From an uncultured Gammaproteobacteria bacterium (lineage in GTDB: Bacteria; Patescibacteriota; Patescibacteriia; Magasanikbacterales; UBA922): a stretch of DNA of 64,000 bases. A model generated the notes under the pieces. It was not told the DNA's origin, ran no database searches, and saw only the letters and a program-made list of their open reading frames with translations. Location of the stretch: NCBI GenBank assembly GCA_964344965.1, contig CAYFPJ010000001.1, positions 22,771 to 86,770 on the forward strand. The letters run 5' to 3'. Numbering within the stretch: the first letter of the stretch is position 1; every line of letters begins with the position of its first letter. The position numbers and the translations under genes were made by a program. Positions 20,419-54,521 of this stretch are shown one piece after another.

Positions 20419-20457
20419 CAATTAACAACTAACAATCTTTGTCTGACTTGTTAATTG

Positions 20458-20604
20458 TTAAATCTTTAAGCGGTTTTATTCCTCGATGCTTGCATCGAAA
20501 AAGTGAAAACTAACATTGGTTGAAATAAGATTTTCTGCCAATACCCCGCAGCTTGCTGCGGGGATGGCCCGATGAAGTCTTACTTAAACCAAATTTACTT
20601 TTAT
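20458..20604. repeat. 147-bp element, copy A (exact duplicate of 27204-27350), ending 22 nt upstream of the parB ATG
   Basis: Identical sequence, read directly. Contains hairpins cgatg-cttg-catcg and ccccgcag-cttg-ctgcgggg (CUUG tetraloops). Confidence 0.85.
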
Positions 20605-20625
20605 TGTTAATTGTCAATTGTCATT

Positions 20626-36437: not shown

Positions 36438-37061
36438 ATGCAGAAGATAGAAAAAAATACTCCAAAAACACAAATTATTTTTTCAGTTATTATATTGTTG
36501 TTTGCCAATATACTTGTTATTGGTTTAGCCTTATTTTATTACTGGTCGCTTCATACATTTTTTTTGGTATTTTGGGCCCAAAGTTTGATTATTGGTTTTT
36601 TCTATATTTTGAAAATACTTGATCTAAAAAATTTTTCTACCGAGGGAGTAAAGGTCAATGGAAAATTGGTAAAACCAACAAAAAAGTTTAAAAAAGAAAG
36701 TGCTTGGTTTTTCTTACTCCATTATGGTTTTGTGCATTTTTGTATTTATTTTGCTATTGGTGATATGGCTGGGGAGGTTGATTGGAAAATGGTAATAATC
36801 GGGTCAATTATCTTCTTTGTAAATCACTGTTTGTCTTTTATCATAAATAGAAAACAAGATCGTCTACGGGTTTTTCATATTGGTAAAATTATGATTTTCC
36901 CATATTTGCGTATTTTTCCAATGATTATATTAATTTGGTTAGCATTGAACTTTGCTTCAGACCAATCAACACTTTTATTTTTTTTGGCATTTAAAATTGT
37001 GGCTGATATGACTATGCATGTTGTGGAGCATATTTGGCATGGTGAGACATCATTTTTGTAG
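36438..37061 (+). CDS. hypothetical polytopic membrane protein (207 aa)
   Basis: 5-6 hydrophobic segments. No motif. Confidence 0.45.
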   Translation: MQKIEKNTPKTQIIFSVIILLFANILVIGLALFYYWSLHTFFLVFWAQSLIIGFFYILKILDLKNFSTEGVKVNGKLVKPTKKFKKESAWFFLLHYGFVHFCIYFAIGDMAGEVDWKMVIIGSIIFFVNHCLSFIINRKQDRLRVFHIGKIMIFPYLRIFPMIILIWLALNFASDQSTLLFFLAFKIVADMTMHVVEHIWHGETSFL

Positions 37062-37065
37062 ATAC

Positions 37066-39336
37066 ATGAAATTAGATTCGCAGGTTTCACAATTGAATAG
37101 AGTCGGTAAAGTTCTGGAAAAAAAGCTAGGACGTCTTGGTATTGTTACAGTTGTAGATTTGCTAAATTATTTTCCTTTCCGTTATGAGGATTTTAGTCAG
37201 ATCGTAGATATAAAAGATTTACAAGAAGGATTGGAGGTGACTGTGCGAGGTAGAGTGGAATTGATAGCCAACAAGAGAAGTTCTCGTAAGCGAAAAATTA
37301 TTACAGAAGCAATAGTCAGTGACGGCACCGATAGTTTGCGAATTATCTGGTTTGGCCAACCCTTTATTACCAAGATTTTGAAAGCTGGAGATGATGTATT
37401 TTTTTCTGGTAAGGTGAAGGATGATATGTTTGGGTTACAGATGGTGGGACCGGGGTATGAGAAAGCTGGACAGAGGACTTCCCGCAGGACCTCACCCGCA
37501 CTCGCTTCGCTCGTGTCGACCTCTCCTGAAAGGAGAGGTGAATATGGTGGTGCTTCCAAACCTGCTTTAGATACGACGCACACCGCTCGTATTGTACCGA
37601 TATATCCTCTGACTGCGGGGGTTACACAGAAGCAAGTGCGTTTTTTGATGAAGCAGGTTATTGATTTGTCTAGTAGTATGGAAGATTGGCTGCCGGATGA
37701 TATTCAGGATCGGGTGGATGTCATGGAATTCTCAGAAGCCATAAAAGCAATTCATTTTCCTGATTCTCAAGATGAGCTTAGACATGCTGAAAGGAGATTG
37801 AAATTTGATGAGTTATTTCTCTTACAACTTCGAGCAGAGATGATCAGACAATCGATCAAGAGATCAAAGGCTCCAGAGATCAAATTTCAAGAAAATGAAA
37901 TCAAAACTTTTGTAGACTCACTTCCATTCAAATTAACTAAAGATCAAAAGATTGCTGCTTGGGAAATATTGCAGGATCTGGAAAAAGCAGAACCGATGAA
38001 TAGATTGCTGGAGGGAGATGTGGGGTCTGGAAAGACTGTGGTGGCAGCGATGGCTCTCTACAGTTCGGTGCTGAATGGTTTTCAAGGGGTGCTGATGGCA
38101 CCGACAGAGATTTTGGCGAAACAGCATTTTTCTTCACTGTGTGAATTGCTTGGCGGTAAAGTTAGTATTGGTTTGCTGTCACGTTCAGAACGAACAACGA
38201 ACAACGAACAACGAACAAGTGACAAAGAAGAAAGTTCGTCGATGGTTGATCGTAGTTCGTCAAAAAAATTGTCAAAGAAAAAAATGTTAGAGAAAATAGA
38301 GAATGGTGAATTGGAAATAATTGTTGGTACTCATGCCTTACTTTCTGATGACATAGGATTTGCAGACTTGGGTTTGGTCATCGTGGATGAGCAGCACAGA
38401 TTTGGAGTGGAACAGAGAAAAAAGATTCGAGAAAAGTCTGGTAATAAAAAAACATCTCCACATTTCTTATCTATGACAGCTACACCTATTCCACGTTCTT
38501 TTGCCCTCACTGTGTATGGTGATCTCGATTTGTCTATCATACGAGAGATGCCGGCAGGTCGGAAGCCAGTGCAGACTAGACTTGTGGACCCACATCAAAG
38601 GGATAAGGCGTATAGGTTTATCCGGGAGCAGGTGAGCGACGGTAGGCAGGTTTTTGTAGTGTGTCCTTTGATACAAGAAAAAGGAAAAGAGATAAGAGAT
38701 AAAGAGATACCTTTTATCTCGCAGCCTGCTAAACAGAATGCCTATCTTGTATCTCCATCTGTAGAAAAAAAATCAGTGCTTGCAGAATATGAGAAACTTT
38801 CTAAACAAATATTTCCAGATTTGAAAATTAGTTTTCTTCATGGCAAGATGAAGGCAAAAGAAAAGGATGAGGCGATGGCAAATTTTGTGACAGGGGAGAC
38901 AGATATCCTGGTCTCTACTTCGGTGGTGGAGGTGGGGGTGAATATTCCTAATGCCAGTGTGATGATGATCGAAGGTGCTGAAAATTTTGGCCTGGCCCAG
39001 CTACATCAGTTTCGTGGGCGTGTAGGTAGGAGTGGGCATCGATCTTATTGCTTTTTGTTTACTGATAGTGATAGCCAAAAAGTACAAGAAAGACTTTCTT
39101 TTTTTGAAAAAAATAATAGTGGTTTTGATGTGGCAGAATATGATCTGGAGATGCGCGGCCCAGGAGAGGTCTATGGTAAAGCTCAGAGTGGGATGGAGCA
39201 ACTGCGTCTGGCTTCGATGCGAGACGGTGAGTTGATTAAACTGGCTAGAGAAGTGGCGAGAGGAATTGATTTTGAGAAGTATCCTGAGCTGAGGGAGAAA
39301 GTGGAGGAATGGGAAGATTCTGTTCATTTAGAATGA
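37066..39336 (+). CDS. recG: ATP-dependent DNA helicase RecG
   Basis: Wedge/OB N-terminus, helicase motifs I (GDVGSGKT), II (DEQHRFGV), VI (QLHQFRGRVGRS). Start chosen at MKLDSQ. Carries a GC-rich in-frame insert (37448-37560) and a cgaacaa x4 tandem repeat (38191-38218). Confidence 0.9.
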   Translation: MKLDSQVSQLNRVGKVLEKKLGRLGIVTVVDLLNYFPFRYEDFSQIVDIKDLQEGLEVTVRGRVELIANKRSSRKRKIITEAIVSDGTDSLRIIWFGQPFITKILKAGDDVFFSGKVKDDMFGLQMVGPGYEKAGQRTSRRTSPALASLVSTSPERRGEYGGASKPALDTTHTARIVPIYPLTAGVTQKQVRFLMKQVIDLSSSMEDWLPDDIQDRVDVMEFSEAIKAIHFPDSQDELRHAERRLKFDELFLLQLRAEMIRQSIKRSKAPEIKFQENEIKTFVDSLPFKLTKDQKIAAWEILQDLEKAEPMNRLLEGDVGSGKTVVAAMALYSSVLNGFQGVLMAPTEILAKQHFSSLCELLGGKVSIGLLSRSERTTNNEQRTSDKEESSSMVDRSSSKKLSKKKMLEKIENGELEIIVGTHALLSDDIGFADLGLVIVDEQHRFGVEQRKKIREKSGNKKTSPHFLSMTATPIPRSFALTVYGDLDLSIIREMPAGRKPVQTRLVDPHQRDKAYRFIREQVSDGRQVFVVCPLIQEKGKEIRDKEIPFISQPAKQNAYLVSPSVEKKSVLAEYEKLSKQIFPDLKISFLHGKMKAKEKDEAMANFVTGETDILVSTSVVEVGVNIPNASVMMIEGAENFGLAQLHQFRGRVGRSGHRSYCFLFTDSDSQKVQERLSFFEKNNSGFDVAEYDLEMRGPGEVYGKAQSGMEQLRLASMRDGELIKLAREVARGIDFEKYPELREKVEEWEDSVHLE

Positions 39337-39943: not shown

Positions 39944-41290
39944 TTATGTCTTCGCAATCAACTCCTCAATATTTTTCACTCCTGTCATTTTTACATCTTT
40001 CATATTTGGTAAATTTTTTCCAGCAGCAGTGATTACTCGTTTCATACCCAGTGCGCTACTTTCTTTGATCCTTTTTTCCACATGTCTAACTGAGCGTACT
40101 TCGCCACCAAGGCCCACTTCACCAAATACTACCAGATCCTTACCCCCAGCTTTGTCTTTGAAGCTACTAGCAATAGCTAGGCAGACTGCCAAGTCAGCTG
40201 CTGGTTCATTAGCTTTCATTCCACCGACCACATTGATGTGAATATCATACTGACCAAGATTTAGTTTGGCACGTTTTTGTAATACTGCCACTAAGACATG
40301 AAGACGATTTAGGTCAAAGCCGCTGGCTTTCCTGACTGGATACCCAAAGCTGGTTTTATTCACAAGAGCTTGTATTTCTACGAGTATTGGTCTGGTTCCT
40401 TCCATAAGACAGGTGACAATGCTGCCAGGCATATCTTCTCCACGTTCCTCTAGAAAATTGGCAGAAGGATTTTTGACTCCATTTAGGCCGGTTGCAGTCA
40501 TTTCAAATATGCCGACTTCGTCTGTGGGCCCAAAACGATTTTTGACAGTCCTGAGTATTCTGTGCTGGTGATATCTGTCTCCTTCGAGATATAGGACTGT
40601 GTCCACCAGATGTTCAAGTGTCCGTGGGCCAGCCACAGATCCATCTTTGGTGACATGACCAATGAGCACTATTGCTGTATTGGTTGATTTGGCACATTCC
40701 AATAGTTTGGTGGTGCAAGCCCGGATTTGGTTGACATTCCCTGGCTCTCCACTGACATCATTGGAATAAAGTGTCTGAATGGAATCAATAATTGCCAAAG
40801 ATGGTTTGTTATTTTTGATGGTTGCTGAGACAGATTCGACATTTGTTTCGTTGGCCAGTTGTAGAGATGCAAAATTTTGTGTCTCTACGATACGGTCAGC
40901 TCGAAGTTTTATTTGTTCTATAGATTCTTCTCCAGAAATATATAGAGTAGGGGAAACACTGGCAGCAAGTTGAATCGACAAAGTGGATTTGCCAATCCCG
41001 GGTTCACCACCAAGCAATATTAGGCTGCCAGGTACCAGGCCACCCCCAAGCACACGATCAAGTTCAGAAAGTTTAGTATTAATTCTTTTTACATTCTCAC
41101 CTTTGATTTCAGTGAGAGTTTTTGTTTTTGCAGGTGCGTGTTGTTGCACCTTGTCAGTAGTCTGTGGTCCATAGTTCGTAGTCTGTTCTAAAGTTCCCCA
41201 CTTGCCGCATTCTAGACATCTTCCAGTCCATTTTCCAAATTGAGCTCCGCAATGAGAGCACTCAAAGATTTTATTATTTTTTTTATTCAT
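39944..41290 (-). CDS. radA: DNA repair protein RadA (Sms)
   Basis: N-terminal C4 zinc finger (CSHCGAQF...CLECGKW), RecA-like Walker A GEPGIGKST, KNRFG motif, Lon-protease-like C-terminus. ATG start at 41290 preferred over GTG at 41308. Confidence 0.9.
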   Translation of the reverse strand: MNKKNNKIFECSHCGAQFGKWTGRCLECGKWGTLEQTTNYGPQTTDKVQQHAPAKTKTLTEIKGENVKRINTKLSELDRVLGGGLVPGSLILLGGEPGIGKSTLSIQLAASVSPTLYISGEESIEQIKLRADRIVETQNFASLQLANETNVESVSATIKNNKPSLAIIDSIQTLYSNDVSGEPGNVNQIRACTTKLLECAKSTNTAIVLIGHVTKDGSVAGPRTLEHLVDTVLYLEGDRYHQHRILRTVKNRFGPTDEVGIFEMTATGLNGVKNPSANFLEERGEDMPGSIVTCLMEGTRPILVEIQALVNKTSFGYPVRKASGFDLNRLHVLVAVLQKRAKLNLGQYDIHINVVGGMKANEPAADLAVCLAIASSFKDKAGGKDLVVFGEVGLGGEVRSVRHVEKRIKESSALGMKRVITAAGKNLPNMKDVKMTGVKNIEELIAKT

Positions 41291-41301
41291 ATCTATACAG
41301 T

Positions 41302-43443
41302 TTAACACGAAGTTTCAAAACAACTAACAGTCCTGCTATCCTCTAATGGATTTTTTGGATATTCAAAGTGCCATACCTCTGATTTCAACCTCTTCCATCC
41401 TGCGGCATACATAATCTCAGCTAGTTTTTTGTTGAATTTTCTGTATTCTTTATTGTTTTGCACAGCACGTTTTGTTGGCGCACTGATGCCAGTTTCTTTT
41501 TTCCCATTTATGATCGTAGTACCTTTCAATTGGACATCTATTGCTGTCCCAGAGCCGTGTCTTGAGCCACCTGGCCAAGCTATACTTGAGGGATTGAAGG
41601 TGCCTTTGATAATTTTGTCGCAGGCTATCTCTAGTTGTTCTTCCAAAGATCTGAATCCATAATAAACATTTATTTCTAATCCTTGACTACTGGCTAGTTT
41701 ACCAGCTTTTTTCAAAGGACCTACTATGCTAGGTAGAATGCGAGCAGGCTTACCGGTTGTAGCACTGGATCTGGCTACAATACCTACCATGTTGTGTTTC
41801 TTGACAGCATCTGACAATAGTATAACTTCTGATTCATCAGGAATGCCAGCTAGTTTATATTCACCCCATTTTTCCTTATTTTTACAGATTGGTAGACATT
41901 CCTTTTCTGAGCTACACAGCCTCTTGGCTGTTGATGGGTTAAGCTCATCTTCGGGATGAATGTGTTCTCCCTCTAAAGCATAATCTAGAGATTGTGGAGT
42001 GAAAGTGATTACTCTTAGATTTTTGAATTTTACCAATTCAGGATTTACTAGGTATAAAATAGTATAAGATCCTACCGCCAAGAGTAATCCAGTGATCGAG
42101 TTCAAAAGCATCTTCTTTGCCTCTGTCACCTTCTCACTATTTCCTCCAGAAATGATAAGGGTAAAACCAGAATTAATAATCATCACAACAGCAATAATAC
42201 TCATAATAGCTACGCCATATCTATAGATGGCAGCTAGGTATTCGCCGAGGTAGGGGATAGACAAAAATTCATTTCCATGCTCATCTGCATGTAATACAAG
42301 ATTTTCAGGACTAAAGTTGAGGCCGGGAATATTTATTTTTGGTTGTGGTCTGTGGGTGATTTGTTCTATTTCACCTATTACTCCAGATCCATGCTCTGGG
42401 ATAAGCACATCATCCTTTATTGTTTCACATGTTGATTCTACTCCAGATACGTGACCATTGTATTTACCTATATGCGCCTTCACTTCACCTGGAAAATTAT
42501 CTTTATCAAACAAAACCATCTCTGTACCGTCAAAATAATAGAAAGAAACAGACAGTAGGCCACTTTTCAAAACATCTACCCACACAAATGACTGAGTAGC
42601 TTTGTCTTTTTGGCCGATTTTTTTGGAGTTCCAGTAATTGACCATACCTTTGATTGGTAGTACTACTCTTTTTCCCAGTGTGCCTGTGTTAACATATCTA
42701 AAATTATTGCAGGTCGCATCATAAAAGGCGTGATTGTGGCCAGAAAACAGTGTGCTTATATTTTTTTCTTCTAATTTTTTTACAAATAGAGGATAGTTTT
42801 TTATATCTCCAGAATCATTTAGAGCTAGAGCGCTTTCTGTATTTACATTGTAGGGGTGAATATGCTTGAAGACCAGGTCTCCGGACTGAACATTGTTTTC
42901 TATCCAACTCATTTCTTCATTTTGGAGCCCCCATGACTTGTAGTAACTGATCATAGAGAAGTAAACCCCCTTGTAAGTGAAACGATAAGAGCTCTCTGGA
43001 AATCCAGAAGCATTTTTGGCTTGAGATAGAACACTACTCTTGTTGTTGTCCCAGAATTTTTCCCAAAATATCATGCCATTATCCTTACCAATACCAAACC
43101 CGTCGTGATTTCCTGCCACTGGTACAAAGGGTACTTTCAATTTATCTAAATACACTTTCTTAAATTCGGCCCACTGTTCTTCGGCAGTATGAAAAGGATG
43201 TGTGTGTTTGCATTCTCCGCCACCACCAATTAGATCTCCCGCACCCACTACAAATGCTGGTTTTCGATCGTTGATAATCTCTACAGCATATTTTGACCAC
43301 TTTCCTTGTCTAATGTGGCATTTATTTATATCATGAGTATCTGATATTACTGCGAAACTAAATAAGACGTCTTCTTCAGCCAAAGAGGGAAGAGGGAAAA
43401 GGATAATGATTAATAAAAATATTACATACCAAATATTTTTCAT
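41302..43443 (-). CDS. mosaic envelope protein P1: signal peptide + calcineurin-like metallophosphoesterase + conserved two-TM pilin-like module + VanY-like M15 D,D-carboxypeptidase domain
   Basis: Phosphoesterase motifs (ISDTHD, GDLIGGG, GNHDG, SGHNHAFY). Module YLAAIYRYGVAIMSIIAVVMIINSGFTLIISGGNSEKVTEAKK...LLAVGSYTILYLVNPELVKFKNLR. C-terminal SRHGSGTAIDV and EVWHFEY match the M15B (VanY) SxHxxGxAxD / EWWHF motifs. Confidence 0.7.
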   Translation of the reverse strand: MKNIWYVIFLLIIILFPLPSLAEEDVLFSFAVISDTHDINKCHIRQGKWSKYAVEIINDRKPAFVVGAGDLIGGGGECKHTHPFHTAEEQWAEFKKVYLDKLKVPFVPVAGNHDGFGIGKDNGMIFWEKFWDNNKSSVLSQAKNASGFPESSYRFTYKGVYFSMISYYKSWGLQNEEMSWIENNVQSGDLVFKHIHPYNVNTESALALNDSGDIKNYPLFVKKLEEKNISTLFSGHNHAFYDATCNNFRYVNTGTLGKRVVLPIKGMVNYWNSKKIGQKDKATQSFVWVDVLKSGLLSVSFYYFDGTEMVLFDKDNFPGEVKAHIGKYNGHVSGVESTCETIKDDVLIPEHGSGVIGEIEQITHRPQPKINIPGLNFSPENLVLHADEHGNEFLSIPYLGEYLAAIYRYGVAIMSIIAVVMIINSGFTLIISGGNSEKVTEAKKMLLNSITGLLLAVGSYTILYLVNPELVKFKNLRVITFTPQSLDYALEGEHIHPEDELNPSTAKRLCSSEKECLPICKNKEKWGEYKLAGIPDESEVILLSDAVKKHNMVGIVARSSATTGKPARILPSIVGPLKKAGKLASSQGLEINVYYGFRSLEEQLEIACDKIIKGTFNPSSIAWPGGSRHGSGTAIDVQLKGTTIINGKKETGISAPTKRAVQNNKEYRKFNKKLAEIMYAAGWKRLKSEVWHFEYPKNPLEDSRTVSCFETSC

Positions 43444-43505
43444 ATTTTCCTAATTTTATAACATTGATTCTACTCCAGGCAAACAAGTATACAGGCTAAA
43501 ATAGA

Positions 43506-45431
43506 TTACAATTTTTTTGTGATCAAGTCTGTGTCTATTAGTGGACATTTTGTATCATTCCTGTCTTTGAACTTGAAAGTTGAGCCAAGGGACTTGGCTG
43601 TATCAATAACCCCTTTCCCTCCTTTGAAACCATCGTTTGTATGTCTTTTGGCACAATAATATTTCCTTTTTGTTTTTGGGTTTATTGTGTTGCACAGTTT
43701 TTCATCACCAGCCTTTGTTGCCTCTCCCATAATAACTTGTTTCGTAGGATTTTTGAATTCATGCTTGATCCACATATCATATATTACATCATGTGCTTTA
43801 TTCCAATCGCATGTGGGATCTATAATTTTTAATTTTGTCATAATATTTTTTGCACCACCAAGTCCACTGTGGTGACCTGTGTACATAAAGAATACTTTTG
43901 ATTCATTTGTGGCTTTTGGGCAGACTTTTTCGACTAGCTTATAGGAGGCGCGCAGTGAGCTTGCTCCCACCATGGTGCTTACCTCAGGATCAGTTATTTC
44001 TTCACAGTAGTCACTAAGCCCGTATTTTCCTAGATACCCGTTACTTCCATTTCCTTCACAATTTTTTTTTGTCGTTTGGAATAATCCTTTATATCCTGTA
44101 TCACTCACTGCATCTGGATTTAGCCTGGATTCTCTATAAGCAACCGCCTTTAGAATTTTCCAATCTACATCAAGACAAGATTCATATTTTTGGAATATAG
44201 AATCGTAAGTAGCATTTCCTGTAGATGATTTTGAGGATGAAGAAATTTTTAAGGGTTGACCTTTGTCTAAGATATCCAAAGGAAGACCTTGTACAGTGAG
44301 TATGCGTAAATTTTTAAATTTTACCAACTCTGGATTAATAGTATAGAGTAGGGTGTAAGAGCCTACTGCAAGGATAAGAGCTGTAATGGAATGGATTATT
44401 TTATCTTTTGCTTTGGTGATTTTTTCACTATTGCCACTGGATATGATGTATTGGAAACCAGCGTCGATAATCATCACAACAGCAATTATACTGATGATGA
44501 CTACTGCATATCTATAGATGGCAGCTAGATATTCTCCGAGGTAGGGGATTAAGATGAACTTACTACCCACCTCATCTTCTTCTTGGAGTAAATTTTCGGG
44601 ATTAGAAAAATCAAGACCAGGAATTTTTATTTTTGTTTGCGGTTTTTCTATCTTTAGTTCAATGTCACCGAACACTGATAAATCTGAGACAACTATTGAG
44701 CCATCAAAATCAAATTTTTTGTCGCCGTAAGCTAAAACCATTATCAATTGGTGAAGTAGTTTATGTCCTTCACTATTCATATGAAGACCATCCCCACTGT
44801 CGTAGATGGTCTGCATGCCTTGACCCCCATCTTCTATATATGGATATATATCTACAAATACGTCGAGACCATAAGGTTTGGAACTCAACCACAGAGCATT
44901 GTCTCGAACATTTTTCCCCCACAATTTGGTCCACTCAACTGTTTTCCCTTCCTTGGTGACAGTTTTATAATTGGCAAATGGTTGGGCCCCAGTGACTATC
45001 GTCCTTATTCCCTCTAATTCAGCTTGTTGGAGTATTTTTTTAAAACTGTCTTTGGATTTGTCTGGTGCTTTTGTAGATCCCATGAAGTTTAGACCAGAAT
45101 AAATTATCAGATCATCGTAGCCTCGCCCTTTGACCTTGTCATTGAATTGATCTAAAAACCATTTGTGACCGGTACTACTTTTTACGAAGCAATCAATTTT
45201 GTGTTTTGGTAAAGAATTTTTTAATCTTTTTATCACTCCCCAGTTTTTATTACATCCAGCTGCATAGGTGGATGATCCTATGACTGCAATTTTACCACCC
45301 TCCTCTGTCTCAGCTATGCTGGTGACTGGATAAAAAAAATAAAATGTGAATATAACACAAAATATAAAACTAATTGTTTTCACTACTTTATTTCCAAAGA
45401 TGCTGTTCATAGTTGTAAAATAGTCTCCCAA
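43506..45431 (-). CDS. mosaic envelope protein P2: SGNH/GDSL-like esterase + the same two-TM pilin-like module + lytic transglycosylase (SLT) domain
   Basis: SGNH block V DGLHMNSEGHKLL. Module YLAAIYRYAVVIISIIAVVMIIDAGFQYIISSGNSEKITKAKDK...ILAVGSYTLLYTINPELVKFKNLR is about 75% DNA-identical to P1. SLT motif AYRESRLNPDAVSDTGYKGLFQ. Confidence 0.7.
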   Translation of the reverse strand: MGDYFTTMNSIFGNKVVKTISFIFCVIFTFYFFYPVTSIAETEEGGKIAVIGSSTYAAGCNKNWGVIKRLKNSLPKHKIDCFVKSSTGHKWFLDQFNDKVKGRGYDDLIIYSGLNFMGSTKAPDKSKDSFKKILQQAELEGIRTIVTGAQPFANYKTVTKEGKTVEWTKLWGKNVRDNALWLSSKPYGLDVFVDIYPYIEDGGQGMQTIYDSGDGLHMNSEGHKLLHQLIMVLAYGDKKFDFDGSIVVSDLSVFGDIELKIEKPQTKIKIPGLDFSNPENLLQEEDEVGSKFILIPYLGEYLAAIYRYAVVIISIIAVVMIIDAGFQYIISSGNSEKITKAKDKIIHSITALILAVGSYTLLYTINPELVKFKNLRILTVQGLPLDILDKGQPLKISSSSKSSTGNATYDSIFQKYESCLDVDWKILKAVAYRESRLNPDAVSDTGYKGLFQTTKKNCEGNGSNGYLGKYGLSDYCEEITDPEVSTMVGASSLRASYKLVEKVCPKATNESKVFFMYTGHHSGLGGAKNIMTKLKIIDPTCDWNKAHDVIYDMWIKHEFKNPTKQVIMGEATKAGDEKLCNTINPKTKRKYYCAKRHTNDGFKGGKGVIDTAKSLGSTFKFKDRNDTKCPLIDTDLITKKL

Positions 45432-46075
45432 CCCTCTACATATGAAGGAGGAGCAATTTGTTCATTGTCTATGAATATTGCTGGTACTGCTTGTATATTT
45501 AGTAGAATGGCAAGTTGTTTGTTTCTTTCTACATAGTCGGTTGGTGCTGAAGTGGCAAGGCATCCAGCCATTTTTTCTGTATCTAGTCCTATGTCAGATG
45601 ATATGGCAGCCAATGTTTCTGGAGATAGATTTTCCAAATTATCAAAGGCTAGATTTTTGAATTCTTCAAATTTTCCTTGTAGGGCAGCACAATAAGAGTA
45701 GCGATGGGATGGCTCACTAGATACAGGGAATGTTTTTACAGGCAGTCCTTTCCAGATTACTTTTATCCGACCCGGATGCTTTTTTCTAAGTCCGTCTAAG
45801 ATTACCATCTGATTTTTACATCCTTGGCAGGCAAAATCTTCAAAAACTACAATAGTCTTGCCGGCATTTACACTTCCAAGCACAGGATCATCTGGGAATA
45901 TTGGTACTAGCTCTATTCCTGTATTTGCCTGATTTTTTATCTGCGGTTTTTGAAAAATATTGTTGTGCTGTATCAGACGGATGCCAAATATAATAGTGAT
46001 TAGAAGTATGGCAGGGACAAAAACAGATAAAATGTGTTTTGTTTTGATCATATTTGTAACATTTATTCCACCCAA
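45407..46075 (-). CDS. membrane-anchored DsbA-like thiol:disulfide oxidoreductase (thioredoxin fold)
   Basis: N-terminal TM, CxxC active site FACQGCKN, DsbA-like helical insert. The start may be 46051. Confidence 0.65.
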   Translation of the reverse strand: MGGINVTNMIKTKHILSVFVPAILLITIIFGIRLIQHNNIFQKPQIKNQANTGIELVPIFPDDPVLGSVNAGKTIVVFEDFACQGCKNQMVILDGLRKKHPGRIKVIWKGLPVKTFPVSSEPSHRYSYCAALQGKFEEFKNLAFDNLENLSPETLAAISSDIGLDTEKMAGCLATSAPTDYVERNKQLAILLNIQAVPAIFIDNEQIAPPSYVEGWETILQL

Positions 46076-46189
46076 GGCAGAAAAGTAGACTGATTAAAAA
46101 AGGTAGCACAGATACTTTATTGCATGATAAGAGTTTTATTTTACCATGACTCCATATACCTGTTACCTCTGACTTATTTCAGTAAAAGT

Positions 46190-47428
46190 TTATAATTCCA
46201 CATTAAATAAACCATCTTGGTTTTTGTCTGTAAAATAAATTTTGTCACCCTTGTCATCCAAAAATAGATTATCTATTGTGTGCGGCTTGTCCATGATAAT
46301 TTCTTTTTTTAGGCCGGTCTGAGTATCTATCTTATACAATTTGTCAGGAGTATTGTCAGCTAACTCTGGGACAAATCCAGACCCTTTGGAAAGATCAGTT
46401 GGGACTCCGCAATATACAAATCTATCATCAGCAAACGTGCATTTGTCTGCCCAGGTGTTCACATTCAAGAGCTTTCTGCCTGTTCCTATATTGTCTCCTT
46501 GAGCATTAACTATCCAGAGTTCTGGCTGAAAGTTGCTTCTTGAGCTATAGACGCTGTGCAGAAGCTTGTCTCCACTGGTAGACCATTTGGTCTTCAGGTC
46601 TCTCCCTTCCACAATGATGGATTTGAAATTCTCTCCATGTAGTCCGACCAGTAGCACTTCTTGCCTATCATTGCCAAGCACCTCTCCAGTCCTAGAGAGA
46701 GCCACTACCTGCTTATTTGGGGACCAATCCATGATTACTTTGTAAGCATTTTTTCCCATTGGCTCTACAGCTTTCACATTGTTTCCATCTGGATCGGATG
46801 TTACCAACCAACGGTTTTCTGGAGAAAAGCCCATACTCTTTGAAGCGATTTGACTTCCGTCATCTGAAAAGGTGAATTCTTGCCAATGCTGAGGTAGGGT
46901 AACCTGTTTTTTGGTGGTGAAATTGTAATAAATATTGGATCCGTCAGGATACTCAATGATGGATTCATTTTTTGTCGGTGACCATGTCACTTTTTGGACT
47001 TCGTAAAATACCTCATCACTGAGAGGTTGGGCCGTACCATCATCCATTAGTCTATAAAATTTACCATCTCCTTCATTATAAAATTTTGCCGCTCCAATAC
47101 TATCTTTTTGGACACCAACAAGTGGTGATTCTATCACTTGCTCTATATTTATGTCTTCCTCAAAAAATGTATCATCATCGTCAAAGTCTATTCCGCCACC
47201 GCCCGGTACTGTGCCTATGGTAGGTAGGTCACTGGTCCCACTTCCTGCAGACCCTGTATCGACAGACCCTTCTCCTGAAGCAGGGAATTGACCAGCCTCT
47301 CCAGTGGTTGTGGTAGTAGCCTCCGGGTCAATTTTTGGTGGAGCAAAAAATATGCGATACAGTAAGTATCCTAGTGCAATAGTGATTATTATGAACCCGA
47401 CTATGAGAGCAAGAAGTTTTTTGTCCAT
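46190..47428 (-). CDS. membrane-anchored beta-propeller (TolB/PD40-like) protein with Thr/Gly-rich linker
   Basis: N-terminal TM, poly-T/G linker, repeated ...PDG(S/N)...(I/V)Y... blades. Low-confidence fold call. Confidence 0.4.
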   Translation of the reverse strand: MDKKLLALIVGFIIITIALGYLLYRIFFAPPKIDPEATTTTTGEAGQFPASGEGSVDTGSAGSGTSDLPTIGTVPGGGGIDFDDDDTFFEEDINIEQVIESPLVGVQKDSIGAAKFYNEGDGKFYRLMDDGTAQPLSDEVFYEVQKVTWSPTKNESIIEYPDGSNIYYNFTTKKQVTLPQHWQEFTFSDDGSQIASKSMGFSPENRWLVTSDPDGNNVKAVEPMGKNAYKVIMDWSPNKQVVALSRTGEVLGNDRQEVLLVGLHGENFKSIIVEGRDLKTKWSTSGDKLLHSVYSSRSNFQPELWIVNAQGDNIGTGRKLLNVNTWADKCTFADDRFVYCGVPTDLSKGSGFVPELADNTPDKLYKIDTQTGLKKEIIMDKPHTIDNLFLDDKGDKIYFTDKNQDGLFNVEL

Positions 47429-47450
47429 ATTTTATTATTTTGTTAAGTTT

Positions 47451-49766
47451 TTAATTTTTTGTTTTTTTGGAGAGGAGTGTTTGTCTTTCTCTTTCTTTTG
47501 ATTCTATTTCTTTGCTTACTTTTTTTGATGCACTCCTGTTATCTTGTTCATTTATAAATTCAAAAATAACCAGAAGTATGTTGACGCCAGGAATCATCTT
47601 TAGCAAAAATGTCACACAACTTCCACTTTTGTAGGGTTTACCTTGGGTCAGTTTCATCAGTGCTACTATGGGCATTCCAATCCCTGAAAGTGTAAGTAAA
47701 TGTACAAAACACCCGGTAAGCTCATCTTCATTATCTATTTGATTGTCTATTTTCTTTTTTTGTTTTTTTAGTTTGCTAATGTCCTTATCCAGGTCCTGTG
47801 CTTTTTTATTATTTTTATTTTTTTGCTCTCTTTTTTTGTTATCCAACTCATTTTTTCTGTCTTTCTCTGTTTCGGATCTTTCCTTATTTTTTTCTTTATC
47901 CTTATCTTTTCCTTTTCCTTCTCCTTCTCCTTCTTGTTTATCTTTTTTTTCTGAATCATCTCCCTCATTTTTACTCTCATCTTCAGCCTCTTCTTCCTTT
48001 TCTTCTTCCTTTTTTTCGTCTATGGCAGAATCTTTTTTTCCGTCCAGCGCGTCAGCTGCTTGCTGCCACTTGTCAGCATTCCAAAAACTTGGCATACCAC
48101 CGGGCATTTTTTGCTTACTGTCTTCTTCTGGATCACTGCCATCTTCTGTATCACCATCTTGTTTGTCATCATTTTTTTCTTTGTCATCTTTTACATACTC
48201 TTCACCACCTGGCGCACTCTTTGCAGATTCTTCGTCAGCTTTTTTCTCTTTTTCAGATGGTTCATCACTTTCATCATCTCCGTCATCGTCCTCTTCATCT
48301 TCTTCTGCGTCTTCTGGTGAATCAGTATCATCGTCTGCATTCTCACCATCTACTGGCTGATCTTCTCCCTCGTCGTCATCATCATCAAAAAAATCATCCA
48401 TGCCTGGCACACCTTGTGCCATTCCTGCCAGTCCGTGTCCACCATCTGGTGCATCTTCATCAGTTGTATCTTTTTCATCGTCAGCTTTATCTTCGTCATC
48501 ACCTGCATCTTTTTTTTCATCAGGCCTTTTTTCACCTTCATCGGGTGTTGGTTTTTCGTCTGATGGTAGCAGATCACCACTCGGCGTATCATCAAGGCTG
48601 TCAGCTGCTTGTTGCCACTGATCATCACCCCACATGCTTGCCGGTCCTTTTGGGTTACTTGGTTTTTTTGGTTCTTCGCTTTTTTCATCTCCGCTATCAT
48701 CACCATCATTTTTACCACCTGCATCTTTATCTTTGTCACCACCTTCTTCCTCTTTTGGTTTGTCTGTTTCTGTACCATCTTTTTTTTCGTCTTCTGGTTT
48801 TTTTTGATCTTCCTTTTGCGGTGTATTGTCAGACTTGTTATTGGATTTATCGGAACCTTCTTCTACTTTTTTACCGCCATTATCTGATGCCGGATCACCA
48901 CTCGGCGTATCATCAAGGCTGTCAGCTGCTTGTTGCCACTGATCATCACCCCACATGCTTGCCGGTCCTTTTGGTCTACCTGGTTTTTCTTGGTTTTCAT
49001 CTTTTTTATTTTTATTCTCATCCTCATTTTCACCATCTCCACCTTCTTTCGATTTCTCTGGCTCTGCTTCATCTTTTGGTTCTCCTGCTTTTGTGCCATC
49101 TTTGTCGCCATCTGACTTTTCTGGATTTCCTTTTTCTTTTGGTGCGTCATCAGATTTACCATCTGACTCATTGGATTTGTTGTCGGAACCTTCTTCATTT
49201 TTTTTGTTATCATCGTTTGTTGGCGCATCAAGACTATCTGCAGCTTGTTGCCACTTGTCTGCACCCCAAAAGCTTGGCAATCCGCCTGGCATGACTGTTC
49301 TTGGCTTGCTTGGTTCAGTCGAAGCTTGTCCAGATTCTTGCTTCGGTACCTCAGCTTTTTCAGAGGCGGGTTTAGTTTGTGCTTTTTCTGGTTTTTTGGG
49401 AGTTTGTTTTTTGGGAGTAGGCTGTCGTCCTCTTTCTTGGTTTTCCTTCCTTTTTGCTTTCTTTGCCTTATCCCTCTTTTTTTTTGCTCGTTTGTTTGCT
49501 GCCTTTCTTTTCTTTTTTCTTTCTTGCGCCCTCCTTTGTCCTGGAGTTAGTTGATTGCTATCTCTGGCAGAATTTTTCAGATCCTCTCTGTTTGATGATG
49601 CTCCCCGCGTTCTATTGGTAGCTGATCGCGAACTAGGCTCTCTTCTTTTTGCTTCTTTCTTATTGCCTTGACGACGTGGAGCATCCTGATCATCACCCAC
49701 AAGAGGGGCTGGCACCTTTCTGGCAGCATTTGATTTTCTGTTTTGCTGATCAGATTGATCTGCCAT
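47451..49766 (-). CDS. 771-aa intrinsically disordered poly-acidic/Lys-rich repeat protein with four (M/F)WG(D/A)D(Q/K)WQQAADSLD motifs and a C-terminal hydrophobic anchor
   Basis: Repeats PASMWGDDQWQQAADSLDDTPSGD (x2, encoded by an exact 83-bp direct repeat), PSFWGADKWQQAADSLDAPTNDD, PSFWNADKWQQAADALDGKKD. Basic N-terminus. Hydrophobic GMPIVALMKL...VNILLVIFEF near the C-terminus. Confidence 0.6.
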   Translation of the reverse strand: MADQSDQQNRKSNAARKVPAPLVGDDQDAPRRQGNKKEAKRREPSSRSATNRTRGASSNREDLKNSARDSNQLTPGQRRAQERKKKRKAANKRAKKKRDKAKKAKRKENQERGRQPTPKKQTPKKPEKAQTKPASEKAEVPKQESGQASTEPSKPRTVMPGGLPSFWGADKWQQAADSLDAPTNDDNKKNEEGSDNKSNESDGKSDDAPKEKGNPEKSDGDKDGTKAGEPKDEAEPEKSKEGGDGENEDENKNKKDENQEKPGRPKGPASMWGDDQWQQAADSLDDTPSGDPASDNGGKKVEEGSDKSNNKSDNTPQKEDQKKPEDEKKDGTETDKPKEEEGGDKDKDAGGKNDGDDSGDEKSEEPKKPSNPKGPASMWGDDQWQQAADSLDDTPSGDLLPSDEKPTPDEGEKRPDEKKDAGDDEDKADDEKDTTDEDAPDGGHGLAGMAQGVPGMDDFFDDDDDEGEDQPVDGENADDDTDSPEDAEEDEEDDDGDDESDEPSEKEKKADEESAKSAPGGEEYVKDDKEKNDDKQDGDTEDGSDPEEDSKQKMPGGMPSFWNADKWQQAADALDGKKDSAIDEKKEEEKEEEAEDESKNEGDDSEKKDKQEGEGEGKGKDKDKEKNKERSETEKDRKNELDNKKREQKNKNNKKAQDLDKDISKLKKQKKKIDNQIDNEDELTGCFVHLLTLSGIGMPIVALMKLTQGKPYKSGSCVTFLLKMIPGVNILLVIFEFINEQDNRSASKKVSKEIESKERERQTLLSKKTKN

Positions 49767-49773
49767 AAATTTT

Positions 49774-52326
49774 TTAGACCAATCTATACTCTTTGGCCAC
49801 TCTCTTTAGAGTATAGTCTTTTTTGGTTATTTTTTTTCTTAATATATTAGATACAGCCTCACTAATAATTTTTTCTACCACAGTTTCAAGTATTCTGGCT
49901 CCTGTGTCTTCATCGTACGATTCTTTGATGATACTCTTTATGGTAGGTTTGTCTGAGGAAATTGTGATATTGTCTTTAACCAACTTTTTATTTATTTGTT
50001 CTATCCTATTTTTTATTATCTCTTCTAGTGTTTCTTCTGATAGAGTAGAGAAGAAGCAAGTTTGATCCAGTCTTCCGAGCAGCTCTGAACCAAATTGTTC
50101 TTTTAGTTTGGAGTTGATGGCGGAGTTTATTTCTTTTTTTATTTCAGCAGTCTCTTTATCTCTGGAATGACCAAATCCAATACCGTGAGATTTGTATAGC
50201 TCTGATCCAACATTGGAAGTGAGAATTATAGTGGCATGCGAAAAGTTTATTTTTTTACCAGCACTATCTGTCAATTCCCCTTCATCCAAAATTTGCAATA
50301 ACAAACGAACGACATCTGGATGAGCCTTGTCCACTTCATCGAATAGTACGACCGAGTATGGTCTTTTTTTGATCTCATCTGCAAACCTATTTCTTTCTTT
50401 GTGCCCTATATATCCAGCAGGGGAGCCAAGGAGCTTCGATATTCCATGCTGCTCAGCAAATTCGCTCATATCTAGTTTGACAAGAGCTTTCTCATCAAAA
50501 TACATTTCTTTGGCTAAGACTTTGGCTAGTTTGGTTTTACCCACTCCACTTGGGCCCACGAAGAGTAGAGAGGCAAAAGGTTTTTTTTCTGATTTGAATC
50601 CAAGGTGGGATTGCTTGAGAGAGGAGACTATCTGATCTATTGTTTTGTCTTGGCCAAAAATTTGTTTTTTTATTTTCTTACCCAAGACGTCGAGCTGCTT
50701 CCAGGTACTACTAGTCAATATTTTAGGGTCGACGTTCAATCTTTTTCCTACTATCTTGGCAATATGGGTCACTGTAATTGGTTTTTTGGGGATTGATTTG
50801 CTGTTGGCTATCTTTTTCTCTAGATTAGAAATTTGTTTTTGCAGTTTCTCAGCCTGTTTTTTCAATTCCATTGCTGCTGAAAATTCTTCGGCATGAATAG
50901 CCTGAGCCTTACATTCCAATACATTTTCCAATTCTTTTTTTATTTTTTCTAATTTTTTTTGGGTAGGATGCATTTTTTGCTTGTTCTTCACAGAAGCTGC
51001 TGCCTCGTCAATTAGGTCAATTGCCTTGTCTGGCAAGAAATTGTCATGCACATACTTGATGCTGAGATCCACTGCTGATTCGACTACCTTTGATGATATC
51101 TGGACGTGATGGAATTTTTCATACTGCTTTTTCACACCCTCTAGGATTTCTAAGACTTCTTCCCGTGTTGGCTCATCGATGTCAATGGACTGAAATCTTC
51201 TTTCAAGTGCTGGGTCAGATGAGATATGTTTTTTATACTCATCAATTGTGGTTGCACCGATACAGCGTAGCTGACCTCTTGCCAAAGCTGGCTTGAGGAT
51301 ATTTGCCGCATCCATGGTGCCTTGATTTGATCCTGCTCCAATGATGTTGTGGATTTCATCAATAAAAAGAATAATGTTCGGATTCATTTGTACTTCTTCA
51401 ATGATTTGTTTCAATCTACTTTCAAATTCACCGCGGTAGATTGTCCCCGCAATCAGAAGGGTCATATCAAGAGAGAGAATTTTTTTATTTCTCAGCACAT
51501 CTGGGACTTGACCTTTGAATATTTTTTTTGCCAAGCCTTCTACAATTGCTGTCTTTCCTACACCCGGCTCACCAACTAGGACAGGATTGTTTTTGTTTCT
51601 TCTGCCTAGTATATTTATCAGTCTTTCCATTTCGTCTTTTCTGCCTATCACTGGGTCCAGGTCGGCCTGAATATTCTTACTTGTCAGATCTGTAGCAAAG
51701 GTTTCAAGAGCAGTCATTTGCTTATGGTGATTTTTGTTATTTCTCTCTCTCTTTTTAATTTGTAATTTTGGAGAAGAGATGGCAGGCGGACCTATATCTT
51801 GCTCCATGTGATCCATGGCTTCTGCCACATCATCCACAGTCGGGAAACGGCTTGTATTTTGGACAATAGCCAGGATCTGCTCCTCTATTTCTTCGGTTGC
51901 AGTTTTTGTTTGATTTATTACTTTTTGAACATGTAAGTCTTTTGTTTTGATGAGTCCGTATAGAAGATGCTCTGTACCGACGTAGCCGTTGCCATACTCA
52001 TAAGCCAAGAGCATGGCTTTTTCGAGAGCATTTTTTGAGGCAGAATTTAGATTTGGTAAGGTGGCGGTCAGTGTGTGTCCTGAGCCCTCTTCGTTTTGGT
52101 GAGGTTTTATGATGATAGAAGAAAGCAGAGTGGAAATTTTTGTTGGGGTTATTTTATTGTTTTGTAAAATTTGGTTGGCTATCGAACCTTTTTCTTCACT
52201 CAGTGCTAGGAGAATATGGAGAGGAGTGACATCTGGATGTTTATTTTCAGATGCAGTAGATATACTTCTTGCAATGACATTTTTTAGGTGAGTCGATAAT
52301 TTGTCTAGCAGATGATCGGTATTCAT
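49774..52326 (-). CDS. clpC: Clp-family AAA+ chaperone ATPase (ClpC/ClpB type, two AAA modules, Clp_N repeats, coiled-coil M-domain)
   Basis: Walker A GEPGVGKTAIVEGLA and GPSGVGKTKLAKVLA, sensor/arginine fingers, a GIGFG loop at the ClpP-docking position. 850 aa. Confidence 0.85.
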   Translation of the reverse strand: MNTDHLLDKLSTHLKNVIARSISTASENKHPDVTPLHILLALSEEKGSIANQILQNNKITPTKISTLLSSIIIKPHQNEEGSGHTLTATLPNLNSASKNALEKAMLLAYEYGNGYVGTEHLLYGLIKTKDLHVQKVINQTKTATEEIEEQILAIVQNTSRFPTVDDVAEAMDHMEQDIGPPAISSPKLQIKKRERNNKNHHKQMTALETFATDLTSKNIQADLDPVIGRKDEMERLINILGRRNKNNPVLVGEPGVGKTAIVEGLAKKIFKGQVPDVLRNKKILSLDMTLLIAGTIYRGEFESRLKQIIEEVQMNPNIILFIDEIHNIIGAGSNQGTMDAANILKPALARGQLRCIGATTIDEYKKHISSDPALERRFQSIDIDEPTREEVLEILEGVKKQYEKFHHVQISSKVVESAVDLSIKYVHDNFLPDKAIDLIDEAAASVKNKQKMHPTQKKLEKIKKELENVLECKAQAIHAEEFSAAMELKKQAEKLQKQISNLEKKIANSKSIPKKPITVTHIAKIVGKRLNVDPKILTSSTWKQLDVLGKKIKKQIFGQDKTIDQIVSSLKQSHLGFKSEKKPFASLLFVGPSGVGKTKLAKVLAKEMYFDEKALVKLDMSEFAEQHGISKLLGSPAGYIGHKERNRFADEIKKRPYSVVLFDEVDKAHPDVVRLLLQILDEGELTDSAGKKINFSHATIILTSNVGSELYKSHGIGFGHSRDKETAEIKKEINSAINSKLKEQFGSELLGRLDQTCFFSTLSEETLEEIIKNRIEQINKKLVKDNITISSDKPTIKSIIKESYDEDTGARILETVVEKIISEAVSNILRKKITKKDYTLKRVAKEYRLV

Positions 52327-54261: not shown

Positions 54262-54263
54262 AC

Positions 54264-54521
54264 ATGAAAATTCTCTATAAGCCGACATTTTTGAGGCAGT
54301 ACAAAAAGTTACCAAAAAATCTTCAGAAAGAGGTAAAAGAAAAGATAAATCTATTTGAAGATGATCCGTCTCACCCTTTCTTAAAGACGCATAAATTGCA
54401 TGGACCATTGAAAGGAAGTTATAGCTTTTCTGTTAATTATAAGTATCGAATTGTGTTTGAGTATACAAAAGAAGGGGATGCAGAGTTGCTTGCGGTGGGT
54501 GATCATAGTGTGTACTCCTAG
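54264..54521 (+). CDS. RelE/ParE-family toxin
   Basis: 85 aa. ...LKTHKLHGPLKGSYSFSVNYKYRIVFEY... matches the RelE/ParE fold pattern (K..L.G.L.G.....V...YRI.Y). Confidence 0.7.
   Translation: MKILYKPTFLRQYKKLPKNLQKEVKEKINLFEDDPSHPFLKTHKLHGPLKGSYSFSVNYKYRIVFEYTKEGDAELLAVGDHSVYS

Follow-up and report, generated by a model that had tools for sequence, protein, structure and literature searches.

A membrane-tethered, mostly disordered protein with a repeated tryptophan motif in a conserved operon slot of Magasanikbacteria-type bacteria: a candidate docking scaffold

The 64,000-nucleotide stretch of DNA analysed here (the window; contig CAYFPJ010000001.1, positions 22,771 to 86,770) contains on its minus strand a gene, called Y below, which lies between the gene of a ClpC-type unfoldase and that of an envelope protein, called Z. 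Y is a genuine, unannotated gene from an ultra-small bacterium belonging to the Candidate Phyla Radiation (CPR), of the Magasanikbacteria type. The open reading frame (ORF) of 771 amino acids (aa) that the initial annotation had listed at 47451-49766 is present on this strand with an ATG start. Its product is anchored by its tail and carries four copies of a short tryptophan motif. The elements of Y are the following, with structural confidence given as the pLDDT score of AlphaFold2 (AF2).

47451..49766, minus strand: Y, whole gene, ATG start, 771 aa; tail-anchored, mostly disordered, charged protein
49317..49766, minus strand: basic N-terminal region, aa 1-150, net charge about +29
49428-49544, minus strand: basic single helix, aa 75-113, 39 residues, AF2 pLDDT about 88-95
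49227..49271, minus strand: Trp motif copy 1, aa 166-180, FWGADKWQQAADSLD
48912..48956, minus strand: Trp motif copy 2, aa 271-285, MWGDDQWQQAADSLD, within the repeat arm 48893-48974
48591..48635, minus strand: Trp motif copy 3, aa 378-392, MWGDDQWQQAADSLD, within the repeat arm 48572-48653
48363..48443, minus strand: second conserved linear motif, aa 442-468, GGHGLAGMAQGVPGMDDFFDDDDDEGE; in the relative P0001 (see below) as GGQGLAGMARGLPGQDDFFDEDEEG
48042..48086, minus strand: Trp motif copy 4, aa 561-575, FWNADKWQQAADALD
47688..47918, minus strand: Lys-rich long helix or coiled coil, aa 617-693, AF2 pLDDT about 70-85, running into the anchor
47553..47714, minus strand: hydrophobic hairpin, aa 685-738, with segments 685-705 and 716-738 and a 10-residue loop
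47457..47579, minus strand: C-terminal charged helix, aa 730-770, predicted by AF2

The composition of Y is dominated by Lys (122 residues), Asp (114), and Glu (93). Together these make up 42.7% of the chain, less than the share of over 50% that had been assigned to them; Asp and Glu account for 26.8%, Lys and Arg for 19.6%. The N-terminus is basic, as previously described, with net charges of +5, +15, and +9 in the first three blocks of 50 aa. The middle of the protein is strongly acidic and reaches -29 in residues 451-500. Long ORFs rich in His, Leu, Ser, and Phe run opposite Y on the plus strand (47798-49294, 47743-48360, and 48955-49554). They are artefacts, because the coding strand of Y is purine-rich and A-rich, and the plus-strand AT skew amounts to -0.49 in 48-50 kb; the dismissal of such ORFs in the initial annotation is thus upheld, that at 47798..49294 being the antisense of Y.

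The structure of Y was modelled by AF2 with an alignment of 7 sequences. The chain is mostly disordered, with a mean pLDDT of 50.9 and values below 50 for 501 of the 771 residues, in agreement with the disorder originally proposed, and about 600 residues are both disordered and strongly acidic. Helices are predicted at residues 75-113, at copies 3 and 4 of the motif, and in the stretch that begins at residue 617, takes in the hairpin, and ends at the C-terminus. At copy 3, short helices cover residues 375-378 and 381-391, and the block means of pLDDT for residues 371-390 are 55 and 69, as compared to 30-45 around them; at copy 4, a helix covers residues 565-572. Since AF2 places helices within the disordered region only at the motif, the Trp motif is predicted to be a conditionally folding helix.

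The only hydrophobic segments of Y are those at aa 685-705 and 716-738, which bears out the C-terminal anchor that had been suspected. In the window protein the hairpin spans aa 683-740, each of its 20-residue flanks contains 6 Lys/Arg, and a charged tail of 31 residues follows. No signal peptide was found in Y, aa 1-650 hold no hydrophobic stretch of 19 residues (maximum Kyte-Doolittle value 0.17), and neither LPxTG nor a lipobox is visible in the translation. According to the positive-inside rule, flanks rich in Lys/Arg on both sides of the hairpin put both termini and the whole disordered region in the cytoplasm. The disordered part is therefore predicted to face the cytoplasm, and the C-terminal hairpin most likely fastens it to the inner side of the membrane. 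The missing signal peptide and these flanks speak against the surface-exposed or matrix/adhesin-like role that Y had been given.

All four copies of the Trp motif were located (starting at aa 166, 271, 378, and 561), and no further copy occurs elsewhere in the window in any of the six frames. In the core W-Q-Q-A-A-D-S-L, the residues W, A, A/M, and L fall on a single helical face, with a hydrophobic moment of 0.5-0.6. The motif is thus a short helix of amphipathic character, its hydrophobic face being W-x-x-A/M-A-x-x-L, and proteins that have it carry 1-4 copies. Its core consensus reads P-[KRG]-G-x-[AS]-S-x-[WG]-[GN]-x3-W-x-Q-[AM]-x-[DN]-x-[LI], so that a conserved P-[KRG]-G-x-[AS]-S segment precedes the Trp helix. 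In Y, the motif peptide of 27 residues has the sequence PKGPASMWGDDQWQQAADSLDDTPSGD.

Copies 2 and 3 lie in the two arms of a direct repeat, 48572-48653 and 48893-48974, which are identical and offset by 321 nucleotides (nt), or 107 codons. The repeat is exact, as reported, but 82 nt long rather than 83, the last base being different, and it sits within a longer repeat of 211 nt with 78% identity. Codon by codon, the block of 100% identity comprises exactly 27 codons (aa 265-291 versus 372-398) with abrupt edges; beside it, identity drops to about 50-77% upstream and 27-47% downstream. The arms are in frame, as a recent in-frame expansion would require, but the 107-codon units have diverged outside the 27-codon block and do not point to a fresh duplication of the whole unit. 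Assembly error had been named as a possible source of the repeat. Two assemblies from different sequencing runs (ERZ930070 and ERZ930065) match the window at 100% over 17.3 kb and 11.2 kb, the whole of Y included; because these independent assemblies are identical across the gene, the repeat is not an artefact.

Similar patterns are found in relatives. Motif copies within one protein are more alike than copies of different orthologues, and nucleotide-identical blocks are common to the motif copies of the window gene and of the loci L003 and L047. In the locus L057, two copies differ at many synonymous positions and the peptide is kept. Taken together, the synonymous changes in one gene and the identical blocks in others indicate gene conversion in combination with purifying selection on the peptide; across lineages the motif is conserved at the amino-acid level, and within each gene its copies have been homogenised. 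From its sequence, the 27-codon block looks less like the product of a recent, simple duplication of the whole unit than like that of gene conversion or concerted evolution acting on the motif.

Y does not belong to any described family. Against Pfam, only KilA-N was returned, at 16.4 bits and under the cut-off of 23.8; NCBIfam and the PDB (phmmer) gave no match. Specifically, MecA (Pfam, NCBIfam), ZipA_C (Pfam), and TonB_C or TolA (Pfam, NCBIfam) were not matched, and the N-terminal transmembrane (TM) helix that goes with ZipA, TolA, and TonB is missing. The relatives of Y are likewise free of Pfam domains, and a tblastn search of phage and plasmid collections found no match. The Trp motif, too, has no match above threshold in Pfam, NCBIfam, or the PDB, as the initial annotation had supposed, and no description of the motif or of the operon was found in the literature.

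A search with the full-length protein returned solely P0001, as low-complexity candidates swamped the word index. P0001, a partial sequence from Candidatus Magasanikbacteria named "hypothetical protein", is 38% identical to Y and is encoded in the same slot after clpC. It shares with Y the basic helix, the second motif (here in the form GGxGLAGMAxGxPGxDDFFDxD), and three Trp motifs extended as xWGDxxWQQAADNLDDTPSGELLP. Within the basic helix, the stretch KKAKRKENQxRGRQP is invariant between the two proteins. Kin of the second motif are seen elsewhere, as FGxEDxDFGGMNMGPQDE repeated three times in L047 and as QFGPGDYGGMNL in L029.

A motif profile of 37 positions, built from seven motif copies, was run with HMMER against 1.84 billion representative proteins (E<=1e-3). 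Only five protein clusters matched, and every member with a named source comes from Candidatus Magasanikbacteria. The matched proteins have a common architecture: an acidic disordered region with 1-3 motifs, a Lys-rich helix, a hydrophobic hairpin, and a C-terminal charged helix. Defined by at least one copy of P-[KRG]-G-x(4)-[WG]-[GN]-x(3)-W-x-Q-[AM]-x-[DN]-x-[LI] inside the acidic disordered region, the Trp-motif subfamily consists of P0001, P0002/P0008, P0004, P0005, P0011/12, and the proteins of L012, L033/34, L047, and L060, along with Y itself, which has four copies. Other queries were less productive. A 42-aa motif alignment yielded no candidates (a limit of the word index), a scan of genome contigs with a poor poly-Lys pattern recovered only the same Magasanikbacteria contig, and aa 658-771 of Y found nothing in the database.

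A scan of metagenome contigs with Z gave 529 relatives, from which 80 loci (L010-L089) were kept. Directly upstream of Z, 62 of the 64 loci with enough upstream sequence encode an acidic or Pro/Gln-rich low-complexity protein of 229-714 aa; one of the two exceptions has no such ORF and the other only an ORF of 56 aa. In these proteins a hydrophobic segment or hairpin is usually found about 45-80 residues before the C-terminus. Among 57 distinct slot proteins (56 from metagenome loci and the window protein), the hairpin has a median span of 47 aa, which fits a tight two-helix hairpin, with 6.2 Lys/Arg per 20 residues in the N-side flank and 5.2 in the C-side flank. Many have an N-terminal helical domain that ends in "..D[SN]FG" and a C-terminal tail of the type RRQLLNQSLL (R-x-L-[LI]-N-Q-S-L-L), and 23 of the 57 carry an E-R-[SG]-x-x-T-Q-x-x-N box (ERSxxTQGIN) about 160 aa from the C-terminus.

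The window protein is assigned to this slot family on account of its position, motif, and architecture. Its gene lies on the same strand as its neighbours, with gaps of 7 nt to clpC and 22 nt to Z, and it has the acidic low complexity, the hairpin of the 47-aa type, the Lys/Arg-rich flanks, and the lack of a signal peptide that are seen in the slot. It is an atypical member, in which a basic N-terminus replaces the helical domain and the TQGIN box is missing; its tail RERQTLLSKK bears only a loose likeness to the C-terminal slot motif. The N-terminus aligns, weakly, only with that of a group of three loci, L015/L020/L025. Possible ligands of the basic N-terminal helix, which is specific to this sub-lineage, are nucleic acid, (acidic) lipid, and the acidic region of Y itself. 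When profiles of the conserved C-terminal module, built from 20 Y proteins, were run against the PDB and Pfam, they matched generic coiled coils only.

Conservation in the slot is low. Y proteins are 18-44% identical, as compared to 51-60% for Z, and their disordered regions vary by lineage-specific tandem repeats. Differences in length are found even between strains: P0011 and P0012 differ by one 9-aa unit, EGEEGGDKP, and the proteins of L058/59 have 514 aa versus 496 and 466 aa in L063/64. Trp is rare in the disordered regions (0.4%) and, where present, lies nearly always inside repeated, lineage-specific motifs, which suggests that Trp-based linear motifs have been born repeatedly in this region. 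Other motifs of this kind in the slot are DSGWQDD in four copies (L018, L022), QADQWAESGEGGDDLSEAEKQAA in two to three copies (L014, L017, L037), and WQNQQWQDAINTA (L049 among the listed loci). Public assemblies often end inside the Y gene (P0001, P0003, P0009, P0010, P0013, P0014, and L010, at contig ends or in contigs of 0.8-2.6 kb), which is consistent with internal nucleotide repeats disrupting short-read assembly. In sum, the disordered, membrane-tethered proteins of the slot form a fast-evolving family that is undescribed, and Y is one of its lineage-specific members; its Trp motif belongs to no known family.

The genes around Y form an operon whose main parts are as follows.

39944-52326, minus strand: operon of clpC, (small helical X), Y, Z, a dsbA-like gene, pilin-fused wall hydrolase gene(s), and radA
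49774..52326, minus strand: ClpC-type Hsp100 AAA+ unfoldase, with its stop codon 7 nt before the start of Y
46190..47428, minus strand: Z, starting 22 nt past Y, with an N-terminal TM helix, a Gly/Thr/Ser linker, and a conserved beta-rich domain
L005:3958-4311, L006:9649-10017, and L009:9646-9996: X genes of further loci, overlapping their neighbours in L005 and L006

The operon is flanked by a divergent phosphoglucomutase (PGM) gene upstream and a convergent recG downstream. As far as the contigs reach, its order was found by tblastn of the window proteins across the 80 metagenome loci, and Y follows clpC, directly or after X, in every related locus that extends far enough, including L003, L005, and L006-9. 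No minus-strand terminator-like site was found between 39.5 and 52.8 kb, and overlaps of 4-14 nt join clpC, X, Y, Z, and dsbA in L005. Domain matches of the neighbours support the envelope-related setting in which Y had been placed.

The ClpC protein contains the Pfam domains Clp_N (twice), AAA, AAA_lid_9, AAA_2, and ClpB_D2-small, and an "IGF" loop is visible in its translation; given the two Clp_N repeats and the IGF-type loop, it probably works with ClpP. Z, of about 410 aa, is 51-60% identical among four orthologues, with Cys330 and Cys340 conserved. A profile of Z had no meaningful match in the PDB, and Z has no Pfam match beyond a faint PD40 match of one orthologue, a faint hint that Z may be a beta-propeller. 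A single-sequence AF2 model of Z (mean pLDDT 41.7) is informative only for the N-terminal TM helix. In nearly all loci reaching beyond Z, a gene for a membrane-anchored DsbA-like thioredoxin follows (45407-46075 in the window). Two large envelope enzymes, 43506-45431 (-) and 41302-43443 (-), contain a two-TM module like T4SS_pilin (PF18895) between their catalytic domains: one combines a GDSL-like domain, the pilin module, and an SLT lytic transglycosylase, the other a metallophosphatase, the pilin module (24 bits, just below the cut-off), and a VanY/M15 peptidase.

By tblastn, about 27 of the 80 metagenome loci have, between clpC and Y, a gene for the small protein X (116-134 aa, all-helical, with a conserved C-terminal YYxxCYxL). 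It belongs to no known family and is missing from the window and from the L015/L020/L025 group. The idea that X is fused to the window protein as its N-terminus was rejected, the sequences being unrelated. Beyond the operon, ParA/ParB, topoisomerase I, DprA, and RecG (19630-21489, 24370-26643, 30374-31450, 37018-39336) share the 64-kb window with RadA, which is a recombination- and transformation-flavoured neighbourhood. In the ABY1 class, loci of type IV secretion systems (T4SS) co-localise with comF, recG, and radA, and virB4 lies near recG and radA (PMC12102498); neither VirB4 nor VirD4 was matched among the window ORFs scanned. A small ORF at about 54263-54520 (+) has a weak Pfam match to a ParE toxin (gene calls on the identical contig L001), and a 68-aa ORF beside it is a possible antitoxin.

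The anatomy of Y is clear; its function we infer. The explanation favoured here, to which a probability of about 0.45 is given, is that Y is a membrane-tethered multivalent docking scaffold in a conserved operon slot of CPR bacteria. Its descriptive part (the slot, the tail anchor, the disorder, the lack of an export signal, and a repeated amphipathic motif under selection) can be held with considerable confidence. Y would be the local version of a hypervariable protein that occupies a fixed position in the operon. Its disordered cytoplasmic region would display many short linear motifs from the membrane, and these would recruit a cytoplasmic partner to the site where Z, the DsbA-like protein, and the wall hydrolases work. 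The most plausible partner would be the ClpC hexamer, with Y as its membrane adaptor or tether, or else as a client controlled by ClpC. ClpC ranks first because its gene lies immediately upstream and is tightly linked, because a hexamer with six peptide-binding N-domains suits a multivalent ligand, and because N-domains of the ClpC type have an affinity for disordered clients and Trp-containing peptides (PMC12913811). Further precedents are the complexes of cyclomarin with the ClpC1 N-terminal domain and of the ClpV N-terminal domain with a VipB helix. Nevertheless, for ClpC as the partner of the motif, whether Y is tether or client, the odds are clearly unfavourable and the proposal is tentative.

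Several points weigh against the scaffold explanation. As many as 34 of the 57 distinct slot proteins lack Trp throughout the disordered region, from which it follows that the core function of Y is independent of the Trp motif. The suggested link between motif and ClpC is drawn from operon linkage alone, and the adjacency of Y to Z and the envelope genes is as strong as that to clpC. Moreover, the linkage of clpC and radA is ancestral in Firmicutes, so that clpC may merely belong to the operon that received the inserted envelope genes. The topology of Y is a prediction from its sequence. Apart from the missing TQGIN box, the C-terminal 130 aa of the window protein have no detectable similarity to any other Y (for aa 640-771, phmmer against all collected Y proteins gave no match at E<=10), and the common descent of the anchor is therefore deduced from position and architecture only.

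The absence of Trp from the majority of Y proteins would be readily accommodated if Y acted as an entropic tether or spacer, that is, as a charged linker of variable length, similar to that of ZipA, which spaces a terminal interaction module from the membrane and in which the Trp motifs are accessory. In this sub-lineage, the module would be the basic N-terminal helix, tethering the nucleoid, DNA, or RNA to the membrane near the recombination genes, and radA, recG, and dprA are indeed neighbours. The length of the disordered region (229-714 aa) and its composition vary hugely, down to polymorphism between strains, and the conserved parts are the termini, namely, the "..D[SN]FG" helical domain, the basic helix 75-113, and the C-terminal module. 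However, the motif has been multiplied and is under clear purifying selection, which argues for a binding role; the basic N-terminus is limited to one sub-lineage, and no nucleic-acid-binding domain was detected in Y with Pfam and NCBIfam. A tether of this kind is considered unlikely.

Somewhat less likely still is that Y is simply a client, whose abundance is set by ClpC(P) and whose Trp helices serve as degrons instead of tethering the unfoldase. The tight linkage of clpC and Y suits this explanation, as does the IGF-type ClpP-docking loop of the window ClpC, and clients of ClpC1 are enriched in intrinsically disordered proteins (PMC12913811). Fourfold internal repeats of a degron are rare, though, and no ClpP gene was seen within the window; between client and adaptor, the sequence data do not separate.

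The docking scaffold may also be extended to a larger picture, which appears improbable at present. Y would then be the cytoplasmic hub of an undescribed trans-envelope machine in CPR bacteria of the ABY1/Magasanikbacteria type, with the Trp helices docking the ClpC hexamer at the membrane. Through its hairpin, Y would touch TM segments in both Z and the pilin-fused wall hydrolases. The AAA+ unfoldase would then be coupled either to the remodelling of peptidoglycan or to a conduit of the pilin-like kind, which might serve DNA uptake (radA, recG, and dprA being conserved nearby) or host contact.

An exported Y, either an adhesin or matrix protein or one whose Trp motifs bind the beta-rich ectodomain of Z in the manner of a TolB box, is very improbable. 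The disordered TolB box of colicin E9 does employ two Trp residues, one Z orthologue gives the faint PD40 match, and the neighbours belong to the envelope (Z with its N-terminal TM helix and Cys pair, the DsbA-like protein, and the wall hydrolases). Against export stand the absence of a signal peptide and of any hydrophobic segment in the first 650 aa, the hairpin flanks rich in Lys/Arg on both sides throughout the family, and the lack of a visible LPxTG or lipobox; furthermore, the strongly acidic N-terminal region of 680 aa would require an unknown export route. Finally, a secreted effector that inserts into the host-cell membrane like chlamydial Inc proteins, whose hydrophobic hairpin is bilobed, with X as its chaperone, is a purely analogical idea and scarcely credible, since in spite of the hairpin and coiled-coil architecture of Y, of a small helical X just upstream of it in about 27 of 80 loci plus L005, L006, and L009, and of the episymbiotic life of CPR bacteria with T4SS-like genes (PMC12102498), no secretion ATPase (VirB4/VirD4) was found among the window ORFs scanned and the operon lies on the chromosome, resembles a housekeeping one, and is present nearly throughout the clade.

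Genomes of CPR/Patescibacteria contain many unannotated genes, of which few offer a handle, and Y supplies three. The first is a near-invariant operon that joins a ClpC unfoldase, an envelope protein set, and RadA; the second, an operon slot always occupied by a fast-evolving, membrane-tethered disordered protein; the third, a compact peptide element, that is, a Trp helix of 15-25 residues in 1-4 copies, subject to purifying selection and gene conversion. Should the motif dock ClpC, Y would represent a kind of Clp tether, multivalent and membrane-anchored, that is not described in model bacteria, and would open a route into the way in which ultra-small episymbionts organise envelope remodelling. 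If it does not, Y is still a clean natural case of the birth, multiplication, and homogenisation of a linear motif in a bacterial disordered protein.

Surface adhesins of monoderm bacteria are recognised by a Sec signal peptide or lipobox and/or by LPxTG; Y has none of these and ends in a two-segment C-terminal hairpin instead. Nor does it match proteins of the TolA/TonB type, which consist of an N-terminal TM helix, a periplasmic extension, and a folded C-terminal domain. Chlamydial Inc proteins resemble Y in having a hydrophobic hairpin of about 40-50 aa that coiled coils and disordered regions flank, and in having their two termini on one side of the membrane. They are, however, effectors of a type III secretion system, whereas the Y locus has no linked secretion apparatus and the sequences show no similarity. 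The colicin TolB box and the TolB propeller offer a parallel in a Trp linear motif within a disordered Gly/Ser/Asp-rich context, near the gene of a possibly PD40-like envelope protein, but the Y motif is predicted to be cytoplasmic and Z to lie outside, the spacing of the Trp residues and the sequence differ, and the host is a monoderm-like CPR bacterium.

In ZipA and similar membrane-tethered proteins, as in Y, a membrane anchor is joined to a long, variable linker on the cytoplasmic side, charged or rich in Pro/Gln, that is poorly conserved between conserved ends. ZipA has an N-terminal TM helix and a folded end domain which binds FtsZ, whereas Y has a C-terminal hairpin anchor, lacks ZipA_C, and carries its putative binding elements as linear motifs within the linker. 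The C-terminal scaffold of RNase E in the degradosome is a long, fast-evolving disordered region that gathers partners at the inner membrane by means of short conserved recognition segments, among them an amphipathic membrane-binding element and stretches rich in Arg that bind RNA; in this respect it is similar to Y, which differs in having no catalytic domain, no sequence relation to RNase E, and a TM hairpin in place of the amphipathic helix.

The adaptors of ClpC and ClpX (MecA, McsB, and tethers of the SspB type) are the remaining comparison. MecA is built of N- and C-terminal domains, of which the latter binds the N and M domains of ClpC. Y has no MecA or other adaptor domain, is anchored in the membrane and nearly all disordered, and its motif is unrelated in sequence; its binding to ClpC is putative. 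In common with these adaptors, the Y gene adjoins, and is probably co-transcribed with, that of a ClpC-type unfoldase, and the presentation of a short peptide element on a flexible region corresponds to the logic by which adaptors dock at Clp N-domains, where the multivalency of Y would match the hexamer.

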